The notes under the pieces: model-generated
Databases searched by the model: none
Told to the model about the DNA's origin: nothing
The model's input: the letters and a program-made list of their open reading frames with translations, nothing else
In this document: positions 37,992-61,053 of the stretch, piece by piece
How the letters are laid out: each line of letters opens with the position of its first letter
Numbering within the stretch: the stretch's first letter is position 1
Source: Rickettsiales bacterium
GTDB lineage: Bacteria > Pseudomonadota > Alphaproteobacteria > Rickettsiales > SXRF01
Length of the DNA stretch: 64,000 nucleotides
Reading direction: 5' to 3'
NCBI GenBank assembly: GCA_021299465.1
Contig: JAJTHB010000012.1
Coordinates: 16,173 to 80,172, forward strand
Program-made: the position numbers and the translations under genes

Positions 37992-38011
37992 GGCTTCTTC
38001 CATAAAAGCCC

Positions 38012-39942: not shown

Positions 39943-39950
39943 GAGCCGGA

Positions 39951-40190: not shown

Positions 40191-40285
40191 GTGTGCCTCC
40201 GTTGGTTAAAACGGTTCGTTGTTCGAACTGTTCGGACAAAGGCTGCACGACGATATGGGGAGGCCGAGCGGGGGTTGGGTAGCCG

Positions 40286-40417
40286 TTTAGTGGCAGTTTA
40301 GAGAGAGGTTGGTGAGCCGGTTTAGCCCCACTTTATTAATATAAAATCGCGGTTATTTTCGTATTACCATTAAGGAGGGCAACCGAGGGGCAGTTCGGGG
40401 GCGCTTTAGTGAGAGGT
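40286..40417. repeat. Iteron-like repeats flanking an AT-rich stretch (candidate origin or operator region of the element)
   Basis: TTTAG occurs at 40286, 40297, 40321 and 40405. The 13-mer TTTAG(A/T)GAGAGGT occurs at 40297-40309 and 40405-40417. An AT-rich block (CTTTATTAATATAAAAT) lies at 40331-40347. Confidence 0.3.
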
Positions 40418-44396: not shown

Positions 44397-45052
44397 TCGA
44401 CAAAATCACGCTCATCCTCGCCGACGACCATGCAATGGTACGCAAGGGCTTAACCGCTTTCCTCGCTACGGCAAAAGATATTGAAGTAATGGCGGTGGCA
44501 AGCAACGGGGCGGAGGCAGTTGCCGCTGCCAAAAAACACGCGCCAGACGTGGTGCTGCTGGATTTATTCATGCCTGACCAGCCTGCGCTAGAAACCGTGC
44601 GTCAGATTAAAAAAGCCAGCCCGCGCAGCCAGATTGTCATGGTGACCTCGCATGAGGGTGATGAATATGTTGTGCCGATGACGCAAGCGGGCGCGATCTC
44701 CTACATCCTGAAAGATACCACACCGGAAGACTTAATCAGCACCGTGCGTAAGGCGGCGGCGGGTGAAAGCATCATCAGTCCGCGCATCGCCAAGGCACTG
44801 GTGGCGGTAGTCACGAAAGCGCGTGCGGCAAAAGCTGGTGACGACAATTTCCACGAGGATTTAACCGACCGTGAAATGGAAGTGCTGCACTGTATTGCGG
44901 AAGGCTTGTCGAATGCAGACATTGCGACAAGGCTCACCATCTCGGAAAAAACTGTCAAATCGCATGTGGGGAACATTCTAAGCAAGCTCTACCTCACCGA
45001 CCGCACCCAAGTGGCGGTGTATGCATGGCGCGAAGGTATCGTGAAAAAATAG
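44393..45052 (+). CDS. NarL/LuxR-family response regulator
   Basis: Receiver domain (LILADDHAMVRKG, VVLLDLFMPD, SYILKD) plus a LuxR HTH (LTDREMEVLHCIAEGLSNADIATRLTISEKTVKSHV). The ATG overlaps the kinase stop (ATGA). Confidence 0.85.
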   Translation: MIDKITLILADDHAMVRKGLTAFLATAKDIEVMAVASNGAEAVAAAKKHAPDVVLLDLFMPDQPALETVRQIKKASPRSQIVMVTSHEGDEYVVPMTQAGAISYILKDTTPEDLISTVRKAAAGESIISPRIAKALVAVVTKARAAKAGDDNFHEDLTDREMEVLHCIAEGLSNADIATRLTISEKTVKSHVGNILSKLYLTDRTQVAVYAWREGIVKK

Positions 45053-45060
45053 CATCCACG

Positions 45061-45084
45061 TCAGCCTTAAGGCCGATGCGTCAC
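45061..45084. promoter_or_regulatory. Right (inverted) copy of the 24-nt repeat, upstream of the efflux operon
   Basis: TCAGCCTTAAGGCCGATGCGTCAC. 20 of 24 positions match the reverse complement of 42860-42883. It contains the 10-bp palindrome GCCTTAAGGC. Confidence 0.5.
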
Positions 45085-45123
45085 AAAAATACTTCAATAA
45101 AATAGCGATATTGGAGTATTTTA

Positions 45124-46566
45124 ATGCGATTTCACTGGATGCCATCAGCAGCCTTGCTGCCTCTTATTTTAAGCGGATGTGCCGATTTTAAGGGCATGCC
45201 CTCACTTGACATGAAGCTGCCGGAGCTGTTCGCCGTGCAAGCCACTGAGGAGCCAATCACCCAGCCCGTTGCAAAACTTCAAACCAACTGGTGGACGCAT
45301 ACGGATGATAAAACGCTGATTGCCACCATCCGTGCGCTCGAAAAGCTAAACCTGTCGCTGGAGCAAGCGCAATTACGCCTCAATGCAGCGCGTATCGACA
45401 CAGGCGGATATGATTATCTGCCGAGCCTTACAGCAACGACCAGCGGCCAATTCGATAAGCTCATTAAGGGCGATATGGCGGTTAGCAATGTAGCCACAAA
45501 TTCTAGCAGCAAAAAAACCACCGGCTATTACAGCGCGAAGCTGGATGCATCGTGGGAGATTCCCATTTACGGGCAGCTCGGTGATACAAAAGATATTGCA
45601 AATGCCAATATTGCTTTTGCTGAGGCGGATGTTGAGGCCGTGCGTGCCAGCGTTATCAGTGAAGCGGTGCGACTTTATGCCGAAATGCGTTCTAAGCAGC
45701 AGGAAGCTCTGAAACGTGAAGCGATTGTCGCTGCTTCCAAGAAAATCGCTGACTATCAAGCAATCAAGCACAAGGCGGGGCTGATTACCGATAGCGAGCT
45801 GGGCTTCAGCCAGCAATCGCTACTGACCGCACAGAATGAGTTGAAGCGCACCGAGAATGAGAAAATCGCACGTCAGCAGCAGTTGGCCAAACTGCTCGGT
45901 GCGGTCACGCCCGATGATGCATGGAAAGCCCCTGCTACTATCCCGACATTTGATGTGCCTGCGTTCGACGATACGCCACTGGATGTGCTGCGTAACCGCC
46001 CGGATATTCGCAAGGCCGAAGCCTCAGTATTGGCGGCGGCGGGTGAGCTTGAACTCTCGAAAAGCGATATGTACCCCAAGCTAAGTCTGACGGGGAATTT
46101 ATCACAGCTTGGTAACATCACCGGCAATCCGCTGTCAGGGAATATAGTTCAGCTTTCGGGCGTTCCTTCGATTTCACTTCCTCTGTTTGATTGGGGCAAG
46201 CGCCTTGATGCGGCAAAAGTGAAGGATGAAAGACTCTCGGAAAAGGCCAGTGCCTACCGCGAAACCGTGATTAGTGCGATGAATGAGGTGGAGGAGTTCT
46301 GGTCATCCTACCGCACCGCGCAAGCGACAGAAAAATCCAATGCAGAGAATGCACAGATCGCCAGCAAAGCAAGCAAACATGCGGCGCTGCTGTTCAAGCA
46401 GGGCATCAATGACGGCATTGCGGCGGAAACTGCCGCAATTGATGCGGCGAATGCCGAGATTAGCGCATTGCAAGCCAAGGTGAACACCATCACCCAATTA
46501 ACCGCGCTCACCAAAGCGCTGGGCGGCACATCCGCCCCAACACTAAACGAGAAAAAAGATGATTAG
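45124..46566 (+). CDS. RND efflux outer-membrane factor lipoprotein (NodT family)
   Basis: Lipobox (LILSGC) and two OEP repeats with coiled-coil segments. 480 aa. Confidence 0.85.
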   Translation: MRFHWMPSAALLPLILSGCADFKGMPSLDMKLPELFAVQATEEPITQPVAKLQTNWWTHTDDKTLIATIRALEKLNLSLEQAQLRLNAARIDTGGYDYLPSLTATTSGQFDKLIKGDMAVSNVATNSSSKKTTGYYSAKLDASWEIPIYGQLGDTKDIANANIAFAEADVEAVRASVISEAVRLYAEMRSKQQEALKREAIVAASKKIADYQAIKHKAGLITDSELGFSQQSLLTAQNELKRTENEKIARQQQLAKLLGAVTPDDAWKAPATIPTFDVPAFDDTPLDVLRNRPDIRKAEASVLAAAGELELSKSDMYPKLSLTGNLSQLGNITGNPLSGNIVQLSGVPSISLPLFDWGKRLDAAKVKDERLSEKASAYRETVISAMNEVEEFWSSYRTAQATEKSNAENAQIASKASKHAALLFKQGINDGIAAETAAIDAANAEISALQAKVNTITQLTALTKALGGTSAPTLNEKKDD

Positions 46567-47596
46567 ACGCATTCTATTTTTAGCCCTTGGCTTAGGCCTG
46601 CTTTACGGCGCATTCACGTTACTCACGGATGAGGATGCACAAACGCAACCCGCAACAGCTTCACTCAGTGTTACGGTGGTTTCGCCGCAACAAGGCAGCA
46701 TTTCCCAAACCATTTCTGCCACTGGCATGACCATTCCACGCGAGGAACTACAAGTCATGACCGAGCTTGCGAGTGTGCGGGTACGTGAAGTGCTGGTCGA
46801 TGTCGGCGATAACGTAAAGAAAGGCCAGATATTAGCGGTACTGGATGGACAGTCGCAGCAACATCAGGTGGCGCAGCTTAAGAGCGATTTTGAACGCGCC
46901 CACGATGCATTTGCCCGTGTTGATGGCATTAAAGATACTGGTGCGGTGAGTAAACAACTGGTGACGGAAAAGCGCACCGCCATGCAATCGGCAAAAGCCT
47001 TACTGGAGGATGCGGAACTCAACCTGAAACGCAGCACCATTACTGCGCCGGAAGCTGGGGTGGTTTTCGAGCGCAAGACAACGATTGGTGGTTTGGTGAG
47101 CAATAGCGAGCCGCTTTTCCGCATCGCCCGTCGCAATGAAATTGAGATGGAAGCAATGGTGCCGGAATCTGCACTTTCTGCGCTTAAAGTTGGCCAGCCT
47201 GTTGTGGTGACGCTTACGGGCGATAGCGAGGCTATAGAAGGGAAAATCCGTCTTGTGACTCCACGCGTTAGCGATAGCACACGCATGGCAGCCATTCGCA
47301 TCCAGCTAAAAAGCACCAACCATATCCCCGTTGGCTTGTTTGCCGCCGCTCGAATTATGCAGAACGAACGCGCGGGCTTGTTGCTGCCAAAAACCGCCCT
47401 TCAGCAGGATAGTACGGGTGATTTTGTCTGGACACTCACCCCCGAAAACAAAGCTGAGCGATTGCCTGTCACGGTCACATTGCATGGTGACGAACAGGTG
47501 ATGGTAGACGGTGTCGCGCTGGATGCTCGCGTGGTCGCCCGTGCTGGGGCGTTCATTAAGGATGGTGATCACGTCAATGCAGTAGAGGCTAAGTAA
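46559..47596 (+). CDS. RND efflux periplasmic adaptor (membrane fusion protein)
   Basis: N-terminal TM segment, a lipoyl/hairpin/beta-barrel pattern (VRVREVLVDVGDNVKKGQILAVLD ... ITAPEAGVV). Confidence 0.85.
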   Translation: MIRRILFLALGLGLLYGAFTLLTDEDAQTQPATASLSVTVVSPQQGSISQTISATGMTIPREELQVMTELASVRVREVLVDVGDNVKKGQILAVLDGQSQQHQVAQLKSDFERAHDAFARVDGIKDTGAVSKQLVTEKRTAMQSAKALLEDAELNLKRSTITAPEAGVVFERKTTIGGLVSNSEPLFRIARRNEIEMEAMVPESALSALKVGQPVVVTLTGDSEAIEGKIRLVTPRVSDSTRMAAIRIQLKSTNHIPVGLFAAARIMQNERAGLLLPKTALQQDSTGDFVWTLTPENKAERLPVTVTLHGDEQVMVDGVALDARVVARAGAFIKDGDHVNAVEAK

Positions 47597-47601
47597 TCAC
47601 G

Positions 47602-48201
47602 ATGAAAACTATTCTCAATTTTCTAAAATCAATTTTACGAAGCCGAATCTTTCAGGTGAGTGCGGCGCTGTTTTTTTCATTTTGGCTTTATATAGGCGGC
47701 ACATATCTCAGCGGCAATTTCCGTGAGGTTATACCAAATGAATTCTACCGTTCGGGACAGCTAAAAAAAGGTGATATAGCGGAAATGTCCAACAATTATG
47801 GCATCAAAACCATACTGAATCTACGGGGAGAGAATACGGGTTCAGCTTGGTATGATAATGAAGTAGCTGATGCTAAGGCGAGTAATGTTAAGCACATTAA
47901 TTTCAAGATGAGTTCGAAACGCGAACTTACTTCCGATCAGATAAAGGAATTAATTACCATCATGCGTGATGCGCCAAAACCTCTGTTGGTTCACTGCGAA
48001 GGCGGCGTTGATAGAAGCGGGTTAGCATCAGCCTTGTATATGTTTGCAATCAAGAATTCTGAAGGATGGGAAGCCGCCAAACATCTTACATTACTTTACG
48101 GACGCCCACTTTATTTGGGCACAGATAAAATGCGCCTCACTTTTGAAGCCGCAAAAACGTTAAAGCCATGGCTTGAAATGGATATGGCGGAGGGCAACTA
48201 A
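47602..48201 (+). CDS. Membrane-anchored Cys-based (PTP/DSP-fold) phosphatase
   Basis: N-terminal TM segment (IFQVSAALFFSFWLYIGGTYL), NFREV...FYRSGQL, and the CX5R P-loop HCEGGVDRSG. It starts 5 nt after the adaptor stop, and its stop overlaps the pump ATG (TAATG). Confidence 0.7.
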   Translation: MKTILNFLKSILRSRIFQVSAALFFSFWLYIGGTYLSGNFREVIPNEFYRSGQLKKGDIAEMSNNYGIKTILNLRGENTGSAWYDNEVADAKASNVKHINFKMSSKRELTSDQIKELITIMRDAPKPLLVHCEGGVDRSGLASALYMFAIKNSEGWEAAKHLTLLYGRPLYLGTDKMRLTFEAAKTLKPWLEMDMAEGN

Positions 48202-51200
48202 TGTCCGACTATCACAGCAATAGCTTTTCCACCTGGGCCATCCGCAACCCTATCCCGCCGATTGTGCTGTTTCTGGTGCTGACGCTGGCAGGGCTAGTGG
48301 CTTACACGAAACTGCCGGTCAATAACATGCCCGCAGTCGTTATTCCGATTGTCAGCGTGACGATCAGCCAGCCCGGAGCTACGGCCACGGAAATGGAAAC
48401 GCAGATCACCCGCATCGTGGAAAGTGCGCTGGCGGGTATGCAAGGGGTAAAGCATATTCAGTCAACCGTTTCGGAAGGCTCATCGAGCAGCATCATCGAG
48501 TTTCAGTTGGAAACGGATGTTGACCGTGCGGTGAATGACTCGCGGGATGCAGTAGCGGGTATACGCGACCAGTTGCCCCGTTCTATTTTAGAGCCGCAGG
48601 TAAAGCGTGAGGATATTGATGGTGGCCCCATCCTGATTTATACGCTCGAAGCACCGGAAATGCGTGCCGAGGATGCAAGCTGGTTTATTGATGATTTTCT
48701 TAACCGTGAATTGATGGCGATTACGGGTGTAGCGGCTGTGGCGCGTCAGGGCGGTATCAACCACGAAATTACCTTCACGCTAGAGCCAGCCAAGCTGATG
48801 GCTCTAGGCATTTCCGCTGCCGATGTCAGCCACGCGCTGGCTAGGACCAATGTCGATTTACCGGGTGGGCGCATTACCCTTTCTGGCACGGAATATTCAC
48901 TCCGCACGCTGGGTAATGTCAAAACCGTGGAGCTATTAAGAGAAACGCGCATTGCGCTGGCAAACGGGCGTGAATTGCGGCTTGGTGATCTTGGCACCAT
49001 CACTGATGGCGGCGCAGAGCCACGCAACATCACCAAACTCGATGGTAAACCCGCGATCATTTTTCAAATTTCCCGTGCCAAGGGAACCAGTGATGTGGAC
49101 GTGGCACACAAGGTAGAAGCTAAACTCGCTGAGATTGATAAAGCCCGCGAGGATGTCAGCTTTCGCCAGATTTTTTCGACCGCTACCTTCACCGAAAACA
49201 GCTTCCATGCAACGATCACCAATCTGCTGGAAGGTGCGGCACTCACCATCTTCGTCGTATTTCTATTCCTGCGCGACAAGCGTGCCACGATGATTGCAGC
49301 GATTGCTATCCCGCTTTCGATTATCCCGACATTTCTCGCGATGCATCTGCTGGGTTTTTCGCTGAATACCGTCACTTTGCTTGGCATTTCGCTCGTCACC
49401 GGCGTATTGGTGGATGATGCGATTGTAGAAATCGAAAACATCCACCGGCATATGCGAGAAGGTAAAAAGCCTTATGATGCGGCCATGTTCGCCGCCGATG
49501 AAATTGGTCTGGCCGTCATCGCCACCACGCTCGTGATTTGTGCCGTATTCGTGCCGGTGAGTTTGATGCCGGGCATATCGGGCAAGTTCTTCATCCAGTT
49601 CGGGCTGACGGTTGCCATCGCCGCCTTCTTCTCGCTGATTGTGGCGCGGCTCTTAACCCCTATGCTTGCCGCCCATTTGCTCAAAGCCCCCAAGCACCAC
49701 GACACACAACCTCCCCGGTGGTTGCTGCGCTATCATCGCCTTGTCAATTGGACGCTTGATCACCGCCTGAAAACGATGGGCTTGGCGCTGCTCAGCATGG
49801 TGCTTTCCTTCGGCATGATTCCATTTCTTTCAGAAGGATTTATTCCTTACGAGGATATTTCCCAAGCACGCCTGACGCTGGAATTGCCGCGTGGCGCAAC
49901 GCTACAGCAAACGGATGCAGCGGCGCAAACAGTGGCGGCGATACTGAAGAAACAGCCGGAGGTGGAATATGTCCTCACCAGTATTGGCACGACTGCCGCC
50001 AGTCTGGGCGGTGATCCGGGTGAGAATCAGACCGCTGCTAACGGCGTTAACAAAGCAACGATTGATGTAAAGCTCGTGCCACCAGATAAACGCAGCCTTG
50101 AGCAACGCGCATGGGAAGCAAATGTTCTGCCAGAGCTAAAAAATCTGCCCGACATGCGGATTAACTTTGAAAATTCAGACGGCGAGAAAGATGTATCCAT
50201 CACGTTGGTGAGTGACAATAGCGATGCTTTGACCCGAACCGCCGAAGCGCTTGAGCGCGAAATGCGTTCGCTTTCTGAACTCAGCAGCCTCAGCTCCACC
50301 GCTGGCCTCAGCCAGCCGGAAATCACCATTACGCCCGATTTTGCCAAAGCCGCGCAGTTGGGCGTTTCCGTGCAGGCGATCAGCGATGCCGTCAATATCG
50401 GCACCATCGGTGATATTGAGACTAACCTCGCCAAGTTTAATTATGGCAATCGGCAAATCCCTATCCGCGTGCGTTTGCCGCAGGATGCAAACCAATCTAT
50501 CGACATGCTGAAAAACCTGAAATTGCCGACCGCCAGTGGCGGCAGCGTACCACTGTCAGCCATTGCAACCATCGCATTCGGCAGCGGCCCAACCATCATC
50601 CAGCGTTATGATCGCCAACGCCAGATTTCGCTGGAAGCGAATTTGAATGGCGACGCGCTTGGCGACGCACTCGATAGAGTGGAGGCACTTCCAACGCTAA
50701 AAAACCTTCCCGCTGACGTAAAAATGCAAAACTCTGGCGATGCAGAAATAATGGAGGAGCTATTCGGCGGATTTATGCAAGCCATCGGCGCAGGTTTGCT
50801 GATGGTCTATGCGATTCAGGTGTTACTCTACAAAGACTGGATTCAGCCCTTCACGCGCATGGCGGCACTACCGCTTTCCATTGGTGGTGCATTTGTATTT
50901 CTGCTGGTGACCGGCACGGAGTTTTCCATGCCCGCCATGATCGGTATTCTCATGCTGATGGGCATTGCCGACAAAAACTCCATCCTGCTGGTGGATTATA
51001 TGCTGGAACTCATGAAGCAAGGCCGCACACGCCGCGAAGCAATTGTGGAAGCCTGCATGGTGCGTGCGCGGCCTATCGTGATGACCTCGCTTGCCATGCT
51101 CGCGGGTATGTTGCCCATTGCGCTACAATTCGGGCTTGATACGGCCTTCCGCGCACCAATGGCCATTGCGGTAATGGGTGGCTTGATTTCTTCCACCGCC

Positions 51201-51287
51201 CTCAGCCTCATCTTCGTCCCCGTCATGTTCAGCTATGTGCGTGATTTTGAGGACTGGCTGAAACCGAAGCTTAAGAGGTTGTTATAG
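48201..51287 (+). CDS. RND inner-membrane efflux pump (AcrB/HAE1-like)
   Basis: 1028 aa with 12 TM segments and two large periplasmic loops. The TM4 motif reads [20 protein letters not shown]. Confidence 0.9.
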
Positions 51288-51364
51288 GACTGTTACTGCT
51301 TTGGCAGCTTTCTAACTGAACTCCTTGTTAAATTTGTTCATTGCTGTATTTTTGGTTAGTCAAA

Positions 51365-51385
51365 AATTAACAATTAACAATTAAC
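51365..51385. repeat. Heptanucleotide tandem repeat (AATTAAC)x3 15 nt upstream of the SIR2 start
   Basis: Perfect copies lie at 51365-51371, 51372-51378 and 51379-51385. They are followed by AAAACAAACAAC. Confidence 0.8.
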
Positions 51386-51400
51386 AAAACAAACAACGTC

Positions 51401-53194
51401 ATGGCGGCAGAACCTCCGGAAAGCGTCGATACTTTGGCAGAACCACTAGAGCTATCAGATGGTGATTTTATCGCACGCTACGTTCAGAGCGCCCCACAAA
51501 TTATGTGGTTTTTGGGCGCTGGAACTTCGCGCACCGCTGGTATGCCGACGGCTACGGATATTATTTGGGATTTGAAACGGAAATATTACTGCCGTGAGGA
51601 AAACCAAGACATCCAGCAGCACGATATCAATAACGAAAGCGTTAAGAGAAAAATCCAATCATATATGGATAGCAAGAGTTTCCCTGCGTTATGGAGCGCG
51701 GAGGAATACTCCTTCTATTTTGATTTAACCTTCAAAACGGATTACGCGGAGCAGCAAAAATATCTAACTGCCCAGCTATCAACGGATAAAATATCCCTGA
51801 ATATCGGCCACCGTGTTTTGGCTGCGCTGTTAGAAATGGGAAAGGCCAAGCTTGCATTCACAACAAATTTTGACACCGTGATTGAACGTGCGCACGCCGA
51901 AGTTACTGCAAAAGACCTGGCCACATATAACCTCGAAGGTTCTTATGCGGCGCTCGAAGCATTAAATGCTGAGAATTTCCCGATCTATGCCAAGTTGCAT
52001 GGAGATTTTCGTTACCAGAGCATTAAAAATCTGGCAGCAGATTTGGTCAGTAACGACGAGAAAATACAAAGCTGCTTTATGGCAGCGGCAACTCGCTATG
52101 GATTAGTCGTTTCGGGATATAGTGGCCGCGATCAAAACGTCATGACTATGTTTGATAAGGCCTTGGAGCAAAACAATCCATTCCCACAAGGTTTGTATTG
52201 GACAATTACCAAACCGAGCGATGTAACGGACTCAATAAAAGCCTTAATAATGAAGGCAAGAAGCAAAAACGTGAAGGCGTATGTCGTTATCGCCGGAACA
52301 TTTGACATCATGCTATCGAAGATATGGCGGCAAATATCGAATAAGCCTGATGCACTTGATAAAAAGGTCAGAACTGCGATTGCAAAGACGGTTTCCATTC
52401 CGCTGCCCGGAAAAAGCAGCAGCTTTCCTTTACTGCGTACCAATGCCCTTCTAATTACAAGTGTCCCCACAGAATGCGCTGCCATAAGCACTGTAACGGC
52501 TCCAGCATATCCTGCGTTTAAGGAAGCTATTAAGGCAATCTCGGACGTGGTTGCTGCGAAAACCGATAAGATATTACTCTGGGGAAATAGTGCCAATGCA
52601 TTAACTGCGTTGGCGGCGTTTACCCCCTCTCAACCGCAGAAACACCAGTTTGATGCACCTGAATCAGCAATTCAGCAAAGCACTCATATCAAGGCTTTTT
52701 ATGAAGAGGCGCTGGCAAATGCTTTGGTGAGCGGAAAACCTCTAAAATTACGGAAGGATAGGACGACTTTTTATGTGATTGTTGACCATGCACAAGTGAC
52801 AAACGCAGCTTTGAGTCCATTAAAAAATGCTGCCGGTTACCAAGGACGCGCTGGGGCAATATGTGGCTCTGTAAAGGCAGGTGTATTTTGGTCAGAGGCC
52901 GTAAGCCTACGCTTGGAAGAGCGGAATGGCGTTTTGTGGCTCTTATTGCGCCCCGATGTATGGATTTCTCCAATGGTGGAAAGACAGAATTGCTTGGATT
53001 TTGTTAAGGGGAGGAAGAAGTACCGCTACAATCAGAAAGCAAATGAATTTCTGGATGCGTGGGTGCAGGTACTATTGGGAGAATTAGGAGGAAAGGAAAT
53101 TGAAATTACTTATCTTCCTCAATCTGATTTCCCGGCAAAATTTACAATAAACACCCGTTCTGCATTCAGCGGTAAAGAGGTGCTCAATGGTTGA
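51401..53194 (+). CDS. SIR2-family NADase-like protein with about 300-aa C-terminal extension (SIR2-APAZ-like)
   Basis: SIR2 motifs are WFLGAGTSRTAGMPT, FTTNFDT and KLHGDF. The 597-aa size and the C-terminal extension match SIR2-APAZ architecture. A short-pAgo-like start is translationally coupled downstream. Confidence 0.6.
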   Translation: MAAEPPESVDTLAEPLELSDGDFIARYVQSAPQIMWFLGAGTSRTAGMPTATDIIWDLKRKYYCREENQDIQQHDINNESVKRKIQSYMDSKSFPALWSAEEYSFYFDLTFKTDYAEQQKYLTAQLSTDKISLNIGHRVLAALLEMGKAKLAFTTNFDTVIERAHAEVTAKDLATYNLEGSYAALEALNAENFPIYAKLHGDFRYQSIKNLAADLVSNDEKIQSCFMAAATRYGLVVSGYSGRDQNVMTMFDKALEQNNPFPQGLYWTITKPSDVTDSIKALIMKARSKNVKAYVVIAGTFDIMLSKIWRQISNKPDALDKKVRTAIAKTVSIPLPGKSSSFPLLRTNALLITSVPTECAAISTVTAPAYPAFKEAIKAISDVVAAKTDKILLWGNSANALTALAAFTPSQPQKHQFDAPESAIQQSTHIKAFYEEALANALVSGKPLKLRKDRTTFYVIVDHAQVTNAALSPLKNAAGYQGRAGAICGSVKAGVFWSEAVSLRLEERNGVLWLLLRPDVWISPMVERQNCLDFVKGRKKYRYNQKANEFLDAWVQVLLGELGGKEIEITYLPQSDFPAKFTINTRSAFSGKEVLNG

Positions 53195-53324
53195 AACTCG
53201 TAATCAACTATCTGCATATCGAGCCCTGCCAGAACCAGAGCTGATTTTCCATCAGCTTAAAAAAGACACGCACCCATTGAGAGGGTTGGTGAAACACGGT
53301 CCTTATGGGCAGTCACTTGGCTAG
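53187..53324 (+). pseudogene. 45-codon remnant of a short prokaryotic Argonaute gene (N-terminus only)
   Basis: MVETRNQLSAYRALPEPELIFHQLKKDTHPLRGLVKHGPYGQSLG*. The EPxLxF...(R/D)GLxxxGP pattern resembles short-pAgo N-termini. The ATG overlaps the SIR2 stop (ATGGTTGA). Confidence 0.45.
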
Positions 53325-54592
53325 CCACCTTAATTGCACAGATAGCATGTCATCAAAATGAACTGCCGCAAGGTAGTCCATGCTCACCAGTTATCACAAA
53401 TCTCATCACGCATATTCTCGATGTCCGCCTAACACAACGGGCAAAAAAATATGGCTGCACATACTCGCGCTATGCAGATGACATTACATTTTCCACGAAT
53501 CAGAAGGCATTCCCTGAAAAACTAGCTACGCCATCCGATAAGCCCAATCAATGGATGGTTAGCAGCGAAATCGAAGGCATTATCAAACACTCTGGTTTCA
53601 ATATAAATCCGGCGAAAACACGCCTCCAGTTTCGCCCATCCCGGCAGATGGTTACAGGCCTCGTCGTTAATAGAAAAGTGAACATTAAAAGCGAGTATTA
53701 CCGTTACGCACGCTCGATGTGTCATGCGCTATTTACGCTGGGTTCTTTCTTCCGTCCCGGCAGCGACAAACCCACATCTCTCAGGCAACTCGAAGGCATC
53801 TTGAGTCACATTCACTTCATTAAAGAATTCAGCCGCACTACAGATGAACTGACTCTCCGTAAAAAAGTGATGGAAAATGCAAAGGGCAAAGAACGGCCTA
53901 AACTGGATGCAGCAACAGAACTGTATTCTAAATTCCTCTATTTTCGCTATTTTGTGGCGCTGGAGCGGCCACTCATTTTATGCGAAGGCAAGACCGACAA
54001 TATCTACCTCAAAGCTGCCATCAAGCAGTTGGCGAAGAAGAATGTATTCACATTCCCACATGCAGTCGATTTCTTCCCATTTACGCGGCGAGTCAGCGAA
54101 GTAATGAGAATCCATGATGGAGCCCCGGCACTAAAAAACTTCATTGAACATTATACGAAAAGCACGACATTCAAATTTCAGACTCGATCACATCCCGTGA
54201 TTGTTCTGCTGGATAATGATGACGAAGCCAAAAAGGTGATAGACCTCCTGAGCAATAATTTCAAAAAAGATGGCGTTACATACGATCAAAATAGCAATTT
54301 CGTATATCACGTCATTTCTAATTTATACGTCATGCTATTGCCTAAGCCGACAGACACGGCGAAAAATAAAATTGAAGATTTCTTTAATCCATCGGTCATC
54401 GCAACTGTGCTGGAAGGTAAAACTTTCTCAGCGGAGAACGGCAAAAAATTCGATAACCAAAAGCATTACTCAAAACAGGTATTGGCAACAAAAATTGTGC
54501 GCCAGACGCAGGACAGCATAGATTTCAGCAATTTCAAGCCGGTGCTAGAACTGTTATCCAATACCATTCAGTCTTATACTGCTCCCAATTAG
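53325..54592 (+). pseudogene. 5'-truncated retron-type reverse transcriptase fused to a TOPRIM domain (retron Ec67/Eco2-like architecture)
   Basis: RT similarity starts at about 53325, with no start codon there. LPQGSPCSPVITNL, YSRYADDITFS (YADD) and QMVTGLVVNRKVN are retron-like. The C-terminal TOPRIM has ILCEGKTDNIYL and VIVLLDNDDEAKK. RT motifs 1-4 are absent. Confidence 0.7.
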
Positions 54593-54861
54593 GCCGCAGC
54601 TACACTTAGCGGTTCCCACTGGAAGGTTTTGCCATCCAGTTGCGGCGGGGACTTGTAAATCTCCACCCAGTCTTTTATAACCACCTGTAATTGCTCAACC
54701 CGGTTCGAGTTTAGTCCGCGGGGGAGCACCATCCGTGTTCGTTGATTTTTGCTTTGCAAAAATCTAGCTTCGACCAGATTAGGCGCAATCCAATCGATGG
54801 TGTAAGCGTACGAAGCGAATGCCTCGCCGTAGTCCGACAGGGCGAAAGCGGGCGAGTTCGA
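54589..54861 (-). pseudogene. Start-less 90-codon open frame, probable C-terminal gene remnant
   Basis: Open frame ...SDYGEAFASYAYTIDWIAPNLVEARFLQSKNQRTRMVLPRGLNSNRVEQLQVVIKDWVEIYKSPPQLDGKTFQWEPLSVAAA*. There is no plausible start or RBS at its 5' end, and the family is unknown. Confidence 0.25.
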
Positions 54862-54899
54862 TTATTCTCGACTGCCACCATACTTAAAAAACAAGCAGA

Positions 54900-56312
54900 C
54901 TAAATCTGAACCGCTTGCTCGCTGGCGGCGGTGTCGCGTCGCTCTATTTTTGCAGCCCAGCTATTTTTTTGCGATAGCGCGGTCATTTTTTCTCGCAGCG
55001 CCGCTTCAACTTGTGGCTGAGTTAAGCTCACATGCGCAAGGCCAGAGACATACGCCGCTGCTTCAGAAATGGCCTGCTCGCGCACCTCTTCCGGCTGCTT
55101 GACGAGCACATTTGCCGAGAGCAGCACCAGATCATTCATTATGCTTCGATCATCATCAGTTTCTTTGGGGCGTTTTGAGCCAGAAAGCCCAAACAAGCTA
55201 TGGGCGACGAGAAAGGAAGATGCGGTGAGCACATTCCATAAATAATCATGCTGCTTGGCCTGAGCATATTTTAATTCTGCAGCATTGCCATGCGCTCGTT
55301 TGATTGCATTTAACCCATCGACACGTTCTTTATTGGCGCCGATAAGATTGAGCACGTTGTTACTCATTGCCATCGGCATAGCAATCCATGCGCGCGGATT
55401 GCCGGTGATTTTATCCTTTAGCGTTTCTGGCGGCGGTTCCTTACCATCAATCACATTTCTGCTGCCATCCAATATTTTATGGCCACGCGGTTTTTCGAGT
55501 AAAAATGTTGATGCCCACGCGGTTGTAATCAACGCACCAGCGGCAACCTTATATACATTTCTGTTGTTGCTTGCGTGATCCAATTTCAATCCGGCGTGGA
55601 TCATAAAAAGGCCACCGGTCAGTTCCGTCAGGCATTTTACTTGCCCAATATGCTTATGCAGCCAATGGTGAGTGGCTTTAAGTGCACCGCTCTGATGAAG
55701 CGTATCAGGATTAAGGGGATCGACCTGCGAAAGAGCAACCCCTTTTTTATGCAAATGCTTTTTTAATCCCTGCGCTGCTGCCTGTAATTCTTCATCTCCC
55801 TTTTCGGTGCCATAAAAGGTCATTAAAGCGTCGCCAAGAGCAAATGCGCCGCCGGTCGCGATTTCTGACCAGTCGTTGTTACTCAGCTTTCCTGTTCGGT
55901 TATGACGTCCGCGCTGAACGCCCGATATCATTAAGGCAATATTGCCTAAATCATAAAAAAGTGCCGAAAAAAACAATGATTTGCCGCGCACACGTTCAGA
56001 AAATTTTTGTGGTGGCTGGTTGGTTTTGACCAGATCTTTTTCAACACCGTTATGCGCAAGATCGAGTTTTTCTAGATTTTCAATAAAAGACTTTTCATTT
56101 TTGAGACCGCGCACCTGAATAACATTGCGCCCATCCTTGGTATCCATAAGAGTCGAGTAACCACGAGCGCCCAGTTTATTTCTAAGATTTTCCAGTTGCT
56201 CGCCAGGTGCATCCGCTACAGCGATCATTTCTGCCTGCGTGACATTGCCGCGCACCGTCGTGATTTCAACACGATCAATCATGGTGGCGTTTTTGTAACG
56301 GTAAATGGTCAT
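54900..56312 (-). CDS. Hypothetical polytopic membrane protein with soluble N-terminal domain
   Basis: 470 aa. A soluble N-terminal region of about 110 aa is followed by about 6 weakly hydrophobic helices and a C-terminal helical tail. No family was recognised. Confidence 0.5.
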   Translation of the reverse strand: MTIYRYKNATMIDRVEITTVRGNVTQAEMIAVADAPGEQLENLRNKLGARGYSTLMDTKDGRNVIQVRGLKNEKSFIENLEKLDLAHNGVEKDLVKTNQPPQKFSERVRGKSLFFSALFYDLGNIALMISGVQRGRHNRTGKLSNNDWSEIATGGAFALGDALMTFYGTEKGDEELQAAAQGLKKHLHKKGVALSQVDPLNPDTLHQSGALKATHHWLHKHIGQVKCLTELTGGLFMIHAGLKLDHASNNRNVYKVAAGALITTAWASTFLLEKPRGHKILDGSRNVIDGKEPPPETLKDKITGNPRAWIAMPMAMSNNVLNLIGANKERVDGLNAIKRAHGNAAELKYAQAKQHDYLWNVLTASSFLVAHSLFGLSGSKRPKETDDDRSIMNDLVLLSANVLVKQPEEVREQAISEAAAYVSGLAHVSLTQPQVEAALREKMTALSQKNSWAAKIERRDTAASEQAVQI

Positions 56313-56379
56313 GCAACTTCAAAATTCCAAGATACAAGCCAAGATTAACATATATATCGCCATCTAATTGTGACGGTTT

Positions 56380-56397
56380 TGTAACAGTTTTGTTACA
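56380..56397. promoter_or_regulatory. Perfect 7-4-7 inverted repeat TGTAACA-GTTT-TGTTACA in a divergent promoter region
   Basis: Read directly at 56380-56397. A third half-site, GTTACAA, lies at 56403-56409. Confidence 0.5.
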
Positions 56398-56453
56398 GAC
56401 CCGTTACAATTCATTGTGCTTGCCATGGGCTGGCTCGCTAGTAGCATGCGGGC

Positions 56454-58181
56454 ATGGAACAGGCTTTTGAGAAACTGGGGCAGGCGCTTGGCTTGCACGC
56501 GGCAAACTGCCAGCCGGCAATGGAAGCGCATTTTGGCAAGAAGCCCAAATGGGTGGTGTTTCTTTCTGCATGCCGGGGCGTTGAGCGGGCGCATGTTGCT
56601 TGCGCAAGCGGAAACCAGCTCGAGACTGCTTTTAAGGCCGCCCTAGATAAACTCCGTAAGCTCACCAGCCAAGATCCCAGCCAGTGGCGCTGGATCAAGG
56701 CCGACCTAGTCACGAATATTGAGGCCATCTCGCCTGAGCAGGCGATGGATAGAATTCGAAAAACACGCTCAAATTTCTTTCGCCGTGGAATCGCGTTTGA
56801 TTCTTATTTTAATCAGGCGCTGCTTGAGCAGGAAATCAACGGTATCCAGACTTTTCCCAAGGATGAGGCAAATGAAGAAATCTCGCAGATCAAGCTAAGC
56901 CGCATCAGCATTTACCTTAAAAAAAACCGTAAGCTGCCGCCGCTACCGGAAAATCCTGAACGCATGAGCAACTGGTATCTGTTTGATACCACCGCGTATC
57001 TTTACGATCGGCAGCAACAAAAACTCGTCGCCCTAAGCAGCGGCGGTTATCATAACGGCACCCGCTCCACCGAAATTAATTCAGAAGGGGTCAAGCAGCT
57101 GGTATCACGAGCTGGCCACTGGCTGGCGGATCATATTCATGATGATGGCCGGTTCGATTATGGTTTCTTCGCCATCACCCATAAGCCGATTCCGACTTAT
57201 AACATCCTTCGCCATTGCAGCACGCTTTATGCCATGCTGGAGGCATGGGAATTAACGGGCGATGAGGCTATTTTTAAGCCGATTCCGCGCGCGCTGGATT
57301 ATGTCATAAACCATGCCATCCGGCGCGATGGCAATCAGGCTTTCTTGGTTGATCATGAGCAGGATCAAGAAATACGCCTCGGTGGTCAGGCGGCGCTCAT
57401 TCTGGCGCTGGTCAAACATATGAGCCTCACTAAAGACGAGCGTTACCTGGAGCTGGCACAGGCAGCGGCAGAAGCGATTGTTACCCGTTTCATCGATGCC
57501 GAAACAGGCTCGTTTATTCACGTGCTATCCGGCCGCGACCTGTCGGTGAAGGAGCGGTTTCGCATCGTCTATTATGATGGCGAAGCCGTACTGGCACTTC
57601 TGCGCCTGTATGGAATTGATCAGAACCCGCTATGGCTGGAGGCAGCCAGAAAAGCCTTTGAGCGATTTATTGAAACCGATCATTGGAAGCACCACGACCA
57701 CTGGCTCAGCTATGCGACCAACGAGCTGACAGCAATTTTTCCCGAAGATCGCTATTTTCTTTTCGGGCTTAAGAACGCATGCCCTGCGCTGGATTTTATC
57801 GAGTTTCGTGATACCGCCTACCCAACGTTTCTTGAGCTGCTGGTTGCTGCCTGCACCATGGTTAAGCGCATGATAGCACTAGGCAAAGATCCACTCTTGG
57901 CTGCCTTTGATATTGAGCGGTTATTTCGTGTTACTGATCAGCGCGCGCGTCATCAGTCCGCCAGCCATTTCTTTCCCGAAATGGCGATGTATATGGCAAA
58001 GCCTGCCGAGGTCGAGCGTGCTTTTTACACGCGCCACCATTCCTTTCGTGTGCGCATAGATGATATTGAGCATTTCATATCCGGCTACTGTCAATACCAT
58101 CACACGATTCTTGCCAGGCATAGTAGCGCAATTAATAGCTGGCGTGCAATCAAACCGTTGAGTCTAAATATTGTCAAATAA
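56454..58181 (+). CDS. Hypothetical protein, possible alpha/alpha-toroid fold
   Basis: 575 aa. Helical-hairpin-like motifs recur (YNILRHCSTLYAMLEAW, GGQAALILALVKH, YYDGEAVLALLRLY). The family was not verified and the start is uncertain. Confidence 0.5.
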   Translation: MEQAFEKLGQALGLHAANCQPAMEAHFGKKPKWVVFLSACRGVERAHVACASGNQLETAFKAALDKLRKLTSQDPSQWRWIKADLVTNIEAISPEQAMDRIRKTRSNFFRRGIAFDSYFNQALLEQEINGIQTFPKDEANEEISQIKLSRISIYLKKNRKLPPLPENPERMSNWYLFDTTAYLYDRQQQKLVALSSGGYHNGTRSTEINSEGVKQLVSRAGHWLADHIHDDGRFDYGFFAITHKPIPTYNILRHCSTLYAMLEAWELTGDEAIFKPIPRALDYVINHAIRRDGNQAFLVDHEQDQEIRLGGQAALILALVKHMSLTKDERYLELAQAAAEAIVTRFIDAETGSFIHVLSGRDLSVKERFRIVYYDGEAVLALLRLYGIDQNPLWLEAARKAFERFIETDHWKHHDHWLSYATNELTAIFPEDRYFLFGLKNACPALDFIEFRDTAYPTFLELLVAACTMVKRMIALGKDPLLAAFDIERLFRVTDQRARHQSASHFFPEMAMYMAKPAEVERAFYTRHHSFRVRIDDIEHFISGYCQYHHTILARHSSAINSWRAIKPLSLNIVK

Positions 58182-58253
58182 CTCTGCTTGATTCGGCAAA
58201 AAGTTTCTACTAATTTACGCTCTGTTTGAACTAAAATATCAAGTGTTTCAGCT

Positions 58254-59366
58254 ATGAATCAAAAAACCCCCCTTCACGCAGATCATCTAGCGCTTGCGGC
58301 AAAAATGTGCCCGTTTGCTGGCTATGATATGCCGATTCAGTATGCGCTCGGCGTGATCAAAGAGCACGAATGGACACGCGAGCATGCGGGTGTATTTGAT
58401 GTTTCGCATATGGGGCAGGCGTGGGTGAGGGGCGCGGGTTCGGCTGAATTTTTAGGGCGCATTACGCCGTCATCTTTTCTTAAAACGCCGCATAGCCGCG
58501 CGAAATATACGGTGCTGACGAATGACAAGGGCGGCATTATTGATGACCTCATCATCACCCGTGGTGGCGATGACAGTTTTTTTGTCGTGTTCAATGCTGG
58601 CCGCAAAGAGGTAGATATCGCGTGGTTCAAAAAGCAGCTACCGGCGGGAGTGAGTTTTGAGTTTCTGGACGAACAGGCGCTGATTGCGCTGCAGGGCCCG
58701 AAGGCAGAAGAAGTGCTGGTGCGCGAGATGGCCGATATCGGTCTGCGCTCGATGCCCTACATGACCATGAAGGAATCAAGCTGGAAGAGCACGCCCGTGA
58801 TCATCAGCCGCCTTGGCTATACCGGCGAAGACGGATTTGAAATCAGTATCCCGGCGAGTCAGGCGACCGCGCTGTGGCGTGCGCTGCTTACGCATAGCGA
58901 AGTAAAGCCGATTGGCCTCGCTGCGCGCGATTCGCTACGCATGGAGATGGGCTATCCGCTCTATGGCCATGATCTTGATGAATCAACGACGCCGATCGAA
59001 GCAAGTCTTGGCTGGGTGATGAGCAAGGGACATGGCGGCTTTATTGGCGAGACAAGTATCGGGGGCGCCCCCGCAAGAAAGCGCGTCGGCATCAAACTCA
59101 CCGAGCCTGGCATCGCCCGCGAAGGTGCAATAATTTATTCCGGAGAAGACATAATCGGCACGCTCACCAGCGGCGGCTTTTCGCCCACGCTGAAAATGGC
59201 CATCGGCCAGGGCTATGTCGCTGCCAGATATGCCCAGGAAGGAAAGCCGGTAGCAATTGAAGTGCGCGGCAAAAAAATCGCAGGCGAGATCACTCCGCTT
59301 GCTTTCCTCACCCCCAAAACCAAATCATCCGCAATCGATCCAGCGAAGGAAAAAAAATATGGCTAA
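58254..59366 (+). CDS. gcvT: Glycine cleavage system aminomethyltransferase (T protein)
   Basis: TPLHADHLALAAKMCPFAGYDMPIQY, FDVSHMG and GYTGEDGFEI. Confidence 0.9.
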   Translation: MNQKTPLHADHLALAAKMCPFAGYDMPIQYALGVIKEHEWTREHAGVFDVSHMGQAWVRGAGSAEFLGRITPSSFLKTPHSRAKYTVLTNDKGGIIDDLIITRGGDDSFFVVFNAGRKEVDIAWFKKQLPAGVSFEFLDEQALIALQGPKAEEVLVREMADIGLRSMPYMTMKESSWKSTPVIISRLGYTGEDGFEISIPASQATALWRALLTHSEVKPIGLAARDSLRMEMGYPLYGHDLDESTTPIEASLGWVMSKGHGGFIGETSIGGAPARKRVGIKLTEPGIAREGAIIYSGEDIIGTLTSGGFSPTLKMAIGQGYVAARYAQEGKPVAIEVRGKKIAGEITPLAFLTPKTKSSAIDPAKEKKYG

Positions 59367-59742: not shown

Positions 59743-61053
59743 ATGAGATACCTCCCACTCACCCCCCACGACCGCGCCGAGATGCTGAAAGCCATCGGGG
59801 TGGATTCGGTGGATGCGTTTTATCAGAATGTGCCGCAGGCGGCGCGCAGAAAAGAGCTGCTTGGCCTGCCGCTGCATCAGGGCGAGATTGAAGTGGAAAA
59901 AGCCCTGAGTGCCATGGCGGCAAAAAACCATCCGGCGGCAAGCGGGCCGTTTTTCCTTGGCGCGGGCTGCTATTTCCACCATGTGCCGGCGACCGTGGAT
60001 CATATCATCCAGCGCTCGGAGTTCCTCACTTCCTACACGCCGTATCAGCCGGAAATTTCGCAAGGCACGCTGATGGCAGTGTTCCAGTTCCAGACGATGA
60101 TTGCGAACTTAACCGGCATGGATATCGCCAACGCCTCGATGTATGACGGCGCGACCGCCACCGCCGAGGCCGTGCTGATGGCGCGGCGCATTACGAGCCG
60201 CCCGAACATTCATATTCACGGCGCGCTGCACCCGGAATATCGTGAAGTCATCGAAACCTATATCCGCAACTATCCTGAGATGAAGGTGACGTCCGGCGCG
60301 CCCGATGCTAATTGCTCGTGCGTGATTGTGCAGACGCCGGATTTCCACGGCGTGCCGCAGCAGCTGGAAGCGCTTCGCAAACAGTGCAGCGAAACAGGTG
60401 CGCTGCTTATCGTGGTGGTGACGGAGATTTTATCGCTTGGGCTGCTACCTGCGCCGAGTGAAGCGGATATGGTGGTTGGTGAGGCACAGTCGATCGGTGT
60501 GGGCATGAGTTTTGGTGGCCCGCATCTTGGCTTCTTTGCATGCCGTAAGGATTTCCTGCGCCAGATGCCAGGCCGCCTGTGCGGTGAAACGGTTGATCGT
60601 GACGGAAGGCGCGGCTATGTGCTGACGCTATCGACGCGCGAGCAGCATATCCGCCGCGAAAAAGCGACCTCCAACATCTGCACCAATCAAGGCCTGTTTG
60701 CGCTGGCCTTCACTATTCATATGAGCCTGCTTGGCGAGATTGGATTTAAGCAGCTTGCGCGCCTCAACCATGAACGCGCCTGCATGCTGGCAGATAGGCT
60801 CTCAAAGGTGAAAAACCTACGCGTGAGCGACGCGCCGTTCTTTAATGAGTTTGTGGTCGAGCTTGCGGTTTCGGCGAAAGACACCGTGGATCAGCTTGCA
60901 TCGCGCGGCATCATCGCCGGCTATCCGCTGGAAGGCGGGAAGCTGCTGGTGGCTGCCACCGAAATGACCAGCGAGCAGGATATTGAGGTCTTTGCAGGTA
61001 GCTTGGAAGAAATTTGCAGCGCAGGCAAGGTGCGCCAGAAGGAGGTTGCATAA
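59743..61053 (+). CDS. gcvPA: Glycine dehydrogenase (decarboxylating) subunit 1
   Basis: TSYTPYQPEISQGTL, NASMYDGATA, and GPHLGFFACRK. Confidence 0.9.
   Translation: MRYLPLTPHDRAEMLKAIGVDSVDAFYQNVPQAARRKELLGLPLHQGEIEVEKALSAMAAKNHPAASGPFFLGAGCYFHHVPATVDHIIQRSEFLTSYTPYQPEISQGTLMAVFQFQTMIANLTGMDIANASMYDGATATAEAVLMARRITSRPNIHIHGALHPEYREVIETYIRNYPEMKVTSGAPDANCSCVIVQTPDFHGVPQQLEALRKQCSETGALLIVVVTEILSLGLLPAPSEADMVVGEAQSIGVGMSFGGPHLGFFACRKDFLRQMPGRLCGETVDRDGRRGYVLTLSTREQHIRREKATSNICTNQGLFALAFTIHMSLLGEIGFKQLARLNHERACMLADRLSKVKNLRVSDAPFFNEFVVELAVSAKDTVDQLASRGIIAGYPLEGGKLLVAATEMTSEQDIEVFAGSLEEICSAGKVRQKEVA

Follow-up and report, generated by a model that had tools for sequence, protein, structure and literature searches.

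The window analyzed here, a stretch of 64,000 nucleotides taken as a whole, carries one full-length defense gene that is followed by the remnants of two others. The features of this locus are as follows.

51288 to 51432, plus strand: intergenic stretch between an RND efflux gene and the SIR2-APAZ cassette; genome specific; includes ATG 51401, the first codon of the 597-aa open reading frame (ORF)
51401 to 53194, plus strand: SIR2-APAZ gene, effector subunit of a SPARSA short-pAgo system; full-length, 597-aa ORF
53187 to 53324, plus strand: short pAgo gene remnant, codons 1 to 45 and then a TAG stop created by the junction; 45-aa ORF
53322 to 53323, no strand: proposed deletion junction with 2-bp "TA" microhomology, placed by three-way DNA alignments with L008 (intact pAgo) and with L046 and L017 (intact reverse transcriptase [RT])
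53324 to 54592, plus strand: 5'-truncated retron RT-Toprim gene, Ec67 family (type I-C); codons ~158 to 579/593, open frame without a start codon
53555 to 54592, plus strand: 345-aa ORF reported by gene callers, beginning at the earliest ATG of the truncated RT-Toprim frame
54593 to 54733, plus strand: conserved 3' flank of the retron lineage, about 141 bp, 95% identical to sequence 3' of RT-Toprim in L017, L051, and L052

The initial annotation proposed that the 597-aa ORF encodes a SIR2-APAZ protein, and profile and structure comparisons bear this out. The protein matched the PADLOC profile Aga_SIR2-PNTD1-PNTD2 (PDLC02419) end to end (E value of 4.5e-186, profile positions 3 to 556 of 558), the GsSir2 chains of PDB entries 8in8, 8jl0, and 8y7z aligned to residues 18 to 590 (E value of 5e-194), and Pfam SIR2_2 was also matched (E value of 4e-15). 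An APAZ (N-L1-L2-like) region is fused C-terminal to the SIR2 domain, as seen from the PADLOC match running to position 556 of 558 and the PDB alignment running to residue 590; assignment of the C-terminal half to DSR2, ThsA, or a HerA-associated SIR2 was rejected on these APAZ matches. Both the 597-aa ORF (51401 to 53194) and the 45-aa ORF (53187 to 53324) exist as annotated, and the GAGTS, TTNFD, and LHGD motifs can be read in the translation of the former. In a residue-level alignment to 8in8_B, N156 and H200 correspond to the catalytic GsSir2 residues N142 and H186, D244 corresponds to D230, the Asp that binds NAD (residue roles from PMC11452484 and bioRxiv 10.1101/2021.12.14.472599), and the autoinhibitory lid LWSAEEYSFYFD (residues 97 to 108) is kept.

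Relatives place the SIR2-APAZ start at the equivalent of TTG 51434, and their DNA homology to the window sets in between 51433 and 51452; in the L050, L008, L015, and L016 cassettes, none precedes that point. A start at TTG 51434 fits the homologues, so the 597-aa ORF may begin with 11 untranslated codons. A simple consensus scan, which is not informative for this organism, found no sigma-70-like promoter upstream of the gene.

The start of the 45-codon ORF overlaps the SIR2-APAZ stop (ATGGTTGA), the same arrangement that is found in intact operons. The idea that this peptide resembles a short-pAgo N terminus proved correct: it matched PADLOC pAgo_I (E value of 3.8e-11, profile positions 2 to 40 of 457) and is identical at 44 of 45 residues to the pAgo N termini of L008 and L050, close relatives with intact pAgo in which the protein continues with ...SLGYPNQVRPAFL. 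Homology of the stub DNA to full-length pAgo genes ends at the breakpoint. A full short pAgo (MID-PIWI, about 470 aa) directly downstream of SIR2-APAZ is absent here, where only codons 1 to 45 are left, and tblastn found no other piece of pAgo (residues 48 to 474) in the 64-kb window.

Unrelated RT homology was also said to begin where the stub ends, and it does so at nucleotides 53321 to 53324. The frame that opens there is the 3' 73% of an Ec67-family RT-Toprim gene, which matched NCBIfam retron_Ec67_fus (NF038237) over profile positions 147 to 572 of 572 (E value of 9.8e-141) and PADLOC RT-Toprim_I-C over positions 151 to 553 of 568; E values of the Ec67-family profile matches ranged from about 1e-141 to 1e-145. 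Pfam RVT_1 covers only positions 111 to 194 of 205, and Pfam Toprim and OLD-like_TOPRIM gave weak matches at residues 238 to 340. The remnant is 97.45% identical in nucleotide sequence to intact L046 and 92.2% identical to intact L017 (both blastn alignments gap free), and its 423 C-terminal codons, which contain no stop or frameshift, are 95 to 96% identical in protein sequence to intact members of 579 to 593 aa. The 345-aa ORF within this frame shares a 90% cluster with full-length 579-aa RTs, and its reading as an independent gene family was rejected. A terminator-like hairpin at 54724 to 54740 closes the retron 3' flank.

The remnant shares with retron Ec67 type I-C (an RT-Toprim fusion with an msr-msd noncoding RNA [ncRNA] upstream) the RT motifs beginning with LPQG and YADD, the thumb, and the Toprim/OLD-like nuclease domain (LILCEGKTDN, LLDNDDE), which is still fused C-terminal to the RT. 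Unlike intact members, it has no ncRNA with a1/a2 repeats and no promoter, start codon, or RT residues 1 to 157. The RT domain is thus incomplete (a complete one having motifs 1 to 7 with the motif A Asp and YADD): motif A, which as LDLADFF sits upstream of the breakpoint position in L017, is gone along with everything before it, and RT residues 1 to 156 were not found elsewhere in the 64-kb window. An Rfam search for the retron msr returned no match even for intact relatives, and presence of the ncRNA was instead judged by the a1/a2 inverted repeat. Upstream of the intact retrons of L017 and L046 lies a conserved region that contains an a1/a2-type inverted repeat of 14 nt without mismatches; at our locus no such repeat is present, the sole match in the window (at position 7542, with 2 mismatches) being at chance level, and blastn with L017 and L046 found no retron upstream homology in the window. 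Judged from its sequence, the RT remnant cannot make msDNA, and its translation start is not evident.

The junction itself could be placed almost to the base. On the pAgo side the sequence is ...CACTTGGCTA|TCCAAAT, on the RT side it is ...CTGCGGTA|GCCACCTTAATT, and in the window it is ...CACTTGGCTAGCCACCTTAATT, which puts the breakpoint at 53321 to 53324, with RT homology opening exactly at the stub stop codon; by blastn, position 800 of L017 corresponds to 53324 and position 1189 of L046 corresponds to 53322. No direct or inverted repeats flank the junction, and no insertion sequence (IS) or integrase lies at or near it. An inversion or translocation was rejected, given that the window holds no other piece of pAgo or of the RT N terminus and the junction has no repeats. 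A read-through or frameshift fusion of the stub to the RT frame was likewise rejected, as the two frames are offset by -1 and no slippery heptamer precedes the TAG.

JGI and Logan assemblies supplied seven independent metagenome contigs that carry an identical junction; they are 99.7 to 100% identical to the window, so the junction is not an assembly artifact. The source is metagenomic, and short ORFs that overlap a stop codon commonly arise by chance, both of which could be cited for an assembly or binning chimera or for a 45-codon ORF that is an independent, conserved small gene. We give these explanations practically no credence: the contigs carry the junction at 100% identity, come from different samples, and were produced by two assembly pipelines, and 44 of the 45 stub residues are identical to the beginning of full-length pAgo, with DNA homology that ends at the breakpoint. 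The small gene was rejected also because no relative has a short ORF in that place.

Comparison with related genomes yielded the intact counterpart that the initial annotation had anticipated. In all 20 of the 20 related loci with enough sequence, a full pAgo of 473 to 474 aa adjoins SIR2-APAZ at the same overlapping start; among the closest relatives, intact pAgo follows SIR2-APAZ in L008 (95% amino acid identity), L050 (96%), and L015 and L016 (82%). The SIR2-APAZ/pAgo module is found beside GmrSD in L015 and L050, beside a type I restriction-modification system in L016, and beside other genes in L008, and the context of the retron differs among L017, L046, and L045. A metagenome scan, a protein search, and look-ups of cluster members found no contig on which a pAgo of this lineage immediately precedes a retron of this lineage. 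The nearest match to the L008 pAgo in the metagenome scan was 79% identical, and the nearest full-length pAgo in the protein collection was 88% identical to it; the L008 and L050 contigs stop inside pAgo, and the L017 contig opens 328 bp upstream of the RT. GC content is 41 to 48% between 51.2 and 56.2 kb versus 52 to 58% in the flanks. The neighboring 470-aa (minus strand) and 575-aa (plus strand) genes received no defense-family or firm Pfam assignment and are not evident partners.

We consider it highly probable that the locus is the scar of one deletion that joined two broken defense systems, both now dead, and that SIR2-APAZ is inert and owes its intactness to the recency of the event. 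An ancestral low-GC defense island would have carried a SPARSA operon (SIR2-APAZ and short pAgo) and then an Ec67-type retron (msr-msd ncRNA and RT-Toprim). Illegitimate recombination, most simply one deletion of at least about 2.1 kb, would have joined pAgo codon 45 to RT codon ~158 over the 2-bp microhomology. Lost with it would have been the MID-PIWI part of pAgo, which senses guide and target and serves as the oligomerization scaffold, along with the retron ncRNA and the first third of the RT protein, catalytic motif A among it; both systems would have been left dead. We infer both that the SPARSA operon and the retron were adjacent before the event and that the event was single.

An alternative hypothesis is that the junction formed by the joining of two molecules or stepwise, rather than by one deletion in situ. 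Incoming DNA with SIR2-APAZ and 45 pAgo codons may have integrated illegitimately into a resident retron RT gene, or a mobile element may have landed between the modules and later been lost along with flanking sequence. Such histories would account for the differing contexts in which the SIR2-APAZ/pAgo module and the retron each occur among relatives, for homology to other cassettes that opens exactly at the SIR2-APAZ start codon (51433), and for our failure to recover an ancestor with SPARSA and the retron side by side; in L051/L052, moreover, an IS3 transposase has cut a related RT-Toprim remnant. It is, however, normal for defense-island modules to have their boundaries at gene starts, the junction has no IS, integrase, or repeats at or near it, and one deletion between neighboring cassettes of a single low-GC island is the most parsimonious path. 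We therefore regard these histories as unlikely, and both systems would be dead under either of them.

Under the single-deletion model, the locus would show, to the base pair, how two neighboring abortive-infection systems can be disabled together by a single illegitimate deletion, in each of which the sensor or regulator half was lost and the effector half was left. It is ordinary recent defense-island decay, a relic of two known systems and not a new system. Defense-system finders working gene by gene would annotate both a SIR2-type system and a retron RT at this locus, though neither can work.

The locus resembles SPARSA (GsSir2-Ago; 8in8, 8jl0, and 8y7z to 8y82) in its full-length SIR2-APAZ, catalytic N/H/D residues, lid, APAZ region, and overlapping pAgo ATG. 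It differs in keeping only 45 of about 474 pAgo codons, with the MID and PIWI domains, the sensor loop, and the dimerization surfaces gone. As such, it should be unable to form the heterodimer that defines SPARSA, and the published activation by guide RNA and target DNA cannot be expected to operate without pAgo. SPARSA activation requires pAgo-mediated target binding and tetramerization, and N142 and H186 of GsSir2 become catalytically aligned only after pAgo-dependent tetramerization (PMC11452484); a D230A mutant of GsSir2 has also been described (bioRxiv 10.1101/2021.12.14.472599). The isolated SIR2 domain is inactive unless lid residues 83 to 94 are replaced (PMC10474274).

The initial annotation held that a toxic NADase effector had been retained without its sensor and asked how the cell tolerated the loss. 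The first part stands. The implied paradox is weaker than it appeared: because the SPARSA NADase needs pAgo and the SIR2 domain alone is autoinhibited, loss of pAgo is expected to silence the effector, not to unleash its toxicity (PMC11452484, PMC10474274). On this published mechanism, the orphan SIR2-APAZ is probably enzymatically silent. Without pAgo it would be unable to bind guide or target or to tetramerize, and the helical lid would keep the NADase pocket shut; the orphan protein should thus be both harmless and nonprotective. SPARTA has the same architecture and logic, an APAZ-fused NADase with a short pAgo sensor, but its effector is a TIR domain, and TIR-APAZ has been described as catalytically active without pAgo (PMC9097488), whereas the effector here is a SIR2 whose isolated domain is autoinhibited (PMC10474274). 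The worry about toxicity on partner loss thus seems better founded for TIR-APAZ than for SIR2-APAZ. A literature search turned up no experiment that directly tested full-length SIR2-APAZ in the absence of pAgo. Unlike TIR-APAZ, the SIR2 domain on its own appears from the structural papers to be autoinhibited, and the present locus bears on the full-length protein: it is a natural pAgo-less SIR2-APAZ allele with its catalytic residues intact, apparently fixed in an environmental alphaproteobacterial population, and useful for testing autoinhibition.

The contigs that share the junction contain no single-nucleotide polymorphisms (SNPs) between 43246 and 58822 and many in the flanking gcvT/gcvP genes. 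All seven were retrieved by exact protein identity, and with zero SNPs across the island their identity is uninformative about selection. On the branch leading to the window, SIR2-APAZ accumulated 20 synonymous and 8 nonsynonymous changes (dN/dS of about 0.11), and the RT remnant accumulated 7 and 3 (about 0.12); these ratios come from small counts, and parsimony polarization left 70 ambiguous sites in SIR2-APAZ. Since the certainly dead RT remnant has the same low dN/dS and no decay, the low dN/dS signal predates the deletion. The deletion looks young, with almost no time apparently elapsed since truncation: the island is free of SNPs, and both the pAgo stub and the RT remnant lack stops and frameshifts. 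As it seems too young, and the dead RT is equally undecayed, retention of SIR2-APAZ needs no functional explanation; the gene would be intact because the event was recent, not because it is needed.

It is very improbable that the orphan SIR2-APAZ is instead functional and kept by selection, as a stand-alone NADase or one re-wired to another sensor, for which the candidates are a pAgo from another locus, the 45-aa peptide of pAgo, and the RT-thumb/Toprim remnant. The ORF is intact with its catalytic residues kept, the branch dN/dS is about 0.11, the protein is identical in 7 of 7 contigs, the stub is still translationally coupled to SIR2-APAZ, and low dN/dS is also seen in both of the RT-Toprim copies that were N-truncated independently, that of the window and that of L045/L047. 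Against these observations, the nonfunctional RT remnant matches SIR2-APAZ in dN/dS and absence of decay, contig identity carries no weight for the reasons given above, pAgo-like sequence is absent elsewhere in the 64-kb window, all 20 informative related loci pair SIR2-APAZ with an adjacent pAgo, the published activation mechanism requires pAgo, and the stub has neither a slippery site nor an in-frame route into the RT frame. A more specific proposal, which we find hardly credible, is that the deletion product is a selected two-effector arrangement in which SIR2-APAZ is cotranslated with the 45-aa pAgo peptide beside an RT-thumb/Toprim protein. If true, it would hint that halves of abortive-infection effectors are re-used without their original sensors.

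Other RT-Toprim remnants of the same retron lineage (L045/L047 to L049 and L051/L052) are likewise N-terminally truncated with the Toprim half kept. Their left partners differ from ours, being a DUF2141/MacB-efflux flank in one case and the IS3 transposase in L051/L052. The phylogeny, ((L045, L046 intact), window), shows that the truncations in the window and in L045/L047 are independent. The L045/L047 breakpoint lies only 22 bp from that of the window. The two-effector proposal draws on this independent recurrence of N-terminal RT-Toprim truncation within 22 bp in a related genome.

The SIR2-APAZ locus is a relic of two defense systems, SPARSA (a short pAgo system with a SIR2-APAZ effector) and a type I-C (Ec67) retron, and is a working member of neither. 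Both families are well described, but the locus is without the pAgo that defines a working SPARSA member and without the ncRNA and complete reverse transcriptase (RT) of an Ec67 retron. Three reading frames make up the locus.

Reading frames of the SIR2-APAZ locus
51401-53194, + strand: SIR2-APAZ ORF, 597 aa (ORF listing and raw sequence)
53187-53324, + strand: pAgo stub ORF, 45 aa, its ATG overlapping the SIR2-APAZ stop in ATGGTTGA (ORF listing and raw sequence)
53261-54592, frame +3: start-less open frame, with no start codon near its 5' end

The initial annotation read the 597-aa ORF as SIR2-APAZ from its motifs (GAGTS, TTNFD, and LHGD, all in the translation) and layout, and profile searches bear this out. 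The protein matched Pfam SIR2_2 and, almost end to end, the PADLOC SIR2-APAZ model Aga_SIR2-PNTD1-PNTD2 (PDLC02419; profile 3-556/558, E 4.5e-186), which identifies its C-terminal half as APAZ. Residues 18-590 can be aligned with the Sir2 subunit of Geobacter sulfurreducens SPARSA as seen in solved structures (8in8, 8jl0, 8y7z, and others; E 5e-194). N142, H186, and D230 of GsSir2 correspond in that alignment to N156, H200, and D244, all three conserved; N142 and H186 are catalytic (PMC11452484), and D230A abolishes function (bioRxiv 10.1101/2021.12.14.472599). The lid (Gs residues 83-94) is conserved as well, reading LWSAEEYSFYFD in the window protein versus QWSPEEYSFYFE in Gs.

The 45-codon ORF is a short-pAgo N-terminus, as had been proposed: it matched the first 40 positions of PADLOC pAgo_I (E 3.8e-11) and is identical at 44 of 45 residues to the pAgo N-termini of two related contigs, L008 and L050, where the protein runs on as ...SLGYPNQVRPAFL. 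L008, from a MAG labelled uncultured Rickettsiales, carries a SIR2-APAZ with 95% protein and 93% DNA identity (window 51452-53323) and an overlapping pAgo ORF of 329 codons up to the contig end; L050 (96% aa identity) likewise has an intact pAgo start. Two further relatives (L015 and L016; 82% aa) encode complete pAgos of 474 and 473 aa with the same 8-nt overlap. Every one of the 20 related loci whose sequence extends far enough has a full pAgo directly 3' of SIR2-APAZ. At a distant SPARSA locus (L021 3139-6326), the tblastn match to SIR2-APAZ covers residues 12-375 only, and an intact pAgo lies about 675 bp away, perhaps a case of the converse decay.

RT-Toprim homology begins at nt 53321, where the stub frame ends, in agreement with the initial reading. 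The start-less frame contains YSRYADDITFS and, further on, LILCEGKTDNIYL, and it matched NCBIfam retron_Ec67_fus (profile 147-572/572, E 9.8e-141) and PADLOC RT-Toprim_I-C (profile 151-553/568, E 3.6e-145). The 345-aa “gene” of gene callers merely starts at the first internal ATG of this frame, and the locus is a caveat for annotation. Contigs with intact RTs align gap-free with the window: L046 (593 aa) at 97.45% DNA identity over 53322-54576 and L017 (579 aa) at 92.2% over 53324-54733. The Toprim half retained here has no promoter, ncRNA, or start codon.

The junction was placed by three-way alignment of the pAgo side (...CACTTGGCTA/TCCAAAT, the slash marking the breakpoint), the RT side (...CTGCGGTA/GCCACCTTAATT), and the window (...CACTTGGCTAGCCACCTTAATT). 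It therefore falls at 53321-53324, where the two sides share a 2-bp microhomology (TA), and joining them itself produced the TAG that ends the stub. Lost were pAgo codons 46-474 (~1.29 kb), at least 328 bp of a conserved region 5' of the retron RT, and RT codons 1-157 (471 bp, including motif A, LDLADFF), a minimum of ~2.1 kb; any spacer once between the two systems is also gone. The conserved 5' region includes, in both L017 and L046, an a1/a2-type inverted repeat (14 nt, perfect, arms 112 nt apart) that ends ~25 nt before the RT start; the repeat is absent from the window locus. The missing pAgo and RT parts were found nowhere else in the 64-kb window, and no repeats flank the junction.

The junction is no assembly artifact: seven contigs, drawn from four JGI metagenomes plus three Logan assemblies, each carry the identical SIR2-APAZ protein alongside the stub and the RT remnant, and they match the window at 99.7-100% identity. 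The contigs show zero SNPs across 43246-58822, and SNPs are present in flanking gcvT/gcvP and in 41.8-43.2 kb. SNP clusters at 58823-59132 and 59864-61029, in gcvT and gcvP (28 in the population contig L004), suggest recombination tracts or strain mixing beside a monomorphic island.

The junction probably arose by one in situ deletion, the most parsimonious reading, with the former adjacency of both systems inferred. An inter-molecular or multi-step origin is unlikely, even though the SIR2-APAZ/pAgo module and the retron each occur in differing contexts across genomes and our searches recovered no contig with the window's pAgo lineage beside its retron lineage. GC content (41-48% in 51.2-56.2 kb versus 52-58% in the flanks) is consistent with a defense island that was horizontally acquired and is flanked by an RND efflux operon on one side and gcvTHP on the other.

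The deletion appears to be recent, with too little time elapsed for decay. Incapable of working as an RT, the RT remnant provided a neutral control from within the locus. Its 423 codons are free of stops and frameshifts, and on the window branch (polarized with L017) it shows 7 synonymous and 3 nonsynonymous changes (dN/dS ~0.12); SIR2-APAZ (polarized with L015 and L016) shows 20 and 8 (dN/dS ~0.11). A dead fragment as “selected” as SIR2-APAZ implies that these substitutions are older than the deletion, and the intactness of SIR2-APAZ is thus no evidence of function.

The initial annotation also proposed that a toxic NADase is kept without its partner. The gene is indeed retained; how its toxicity is tolerated is less of a puzzle than was implied, pAgo being needed for activation in the SPARSA literature. 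There, the pAgo subunit binds guide RNA and target ssDNA, after which the complex tetramerizes through pAgo-pAgo and Sir2-Sir2 contacts, bringing the H186 loop into position (PMC11452484); a construct consisting of the SIR2 domain alone shows activity only when a linker replaces lid residues 83-94 (PMC10474274, section 13). With pAgo cut to 45 residues, no part of this path would be left, and a conserved lid without pAgo would give a silent effector and a dead defense system. By analogy with these studied proteins, we expect the orphan SIR2-APAZ to be silent, so no special tolerance of pAgo loss would be needed. A caveat is the analogous TIR-APAZ, reported by Koopal et al. to be active without pAgo (PMC9097488); our literature search turned up no study that directly tests full-length SIR2-APAZ by itself. 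As a SIR2-APAZ allele naturally lacking pAgo, the locus has modest interest.

Other RT-Toprim copies are also truncated. A second N-truncated copy (at L045 10098 and L047 8424, corresponding to window 53346), from related alphaproteobacterial MAGs, is 97.2% identical to the window and joins a DUF2141/MacB-efflux flank; its breakpoint lies 22 bp from ours, a proximity with a chance of ~2-3%. The two truncations are independent, because intact L046 shares more identity with L045 (98.6%) than with the window (97.45%). A third remnant (L051 4758-6876 and L052 2-1550; 291 aa, 88% identical) has an IS3-family transposase right at its edge and another retron, made up of a PRTase plus an RT, as its neighbor. 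This retron lineage seems to decay frequently at the N-terminus.

Past the RT stop, ~141 bp (54593-54733) are 95% conserved 3' of RT-Toprim genes in L017, L051, and L052. A small ORF of 47-56 aa on the reverse strand overlaps this segment, at whose end lies a terminator-like hairpin; L017 has two copies (2069-2209 and 4001-4123, the second at 87%) that bracket a flavohemoglobin-Rrf2 pair. Between the retron remnant and gcvT, partly inside the low-GC segment, lie genes for a 470-aa protein (54900-56312, -) with no Pfam or PADLOC match and a 575-aa protein (56454-58181, +) whose sole, weak match is (alpha/alpha)6-barrel GH88-like (E 5e-5). Within the efflux operon, the MFP and RND genes are separated by a 199-aa protein-tyrosine-phosphatase-like gene (47602-48201; Pfam Y_phosphatase3/PTP; 42% GC). 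What appears to be an integrated mobile element occupies 36404-40293: directly after a tRNA-Leu (CAG) come a large serine recombinase (36453-38015, -), a DUF6362 protein, and a phage replisome-organizer/DnaA_N protein. L045 and L047 match the 37453-40293 stretch at 87-92% identity.
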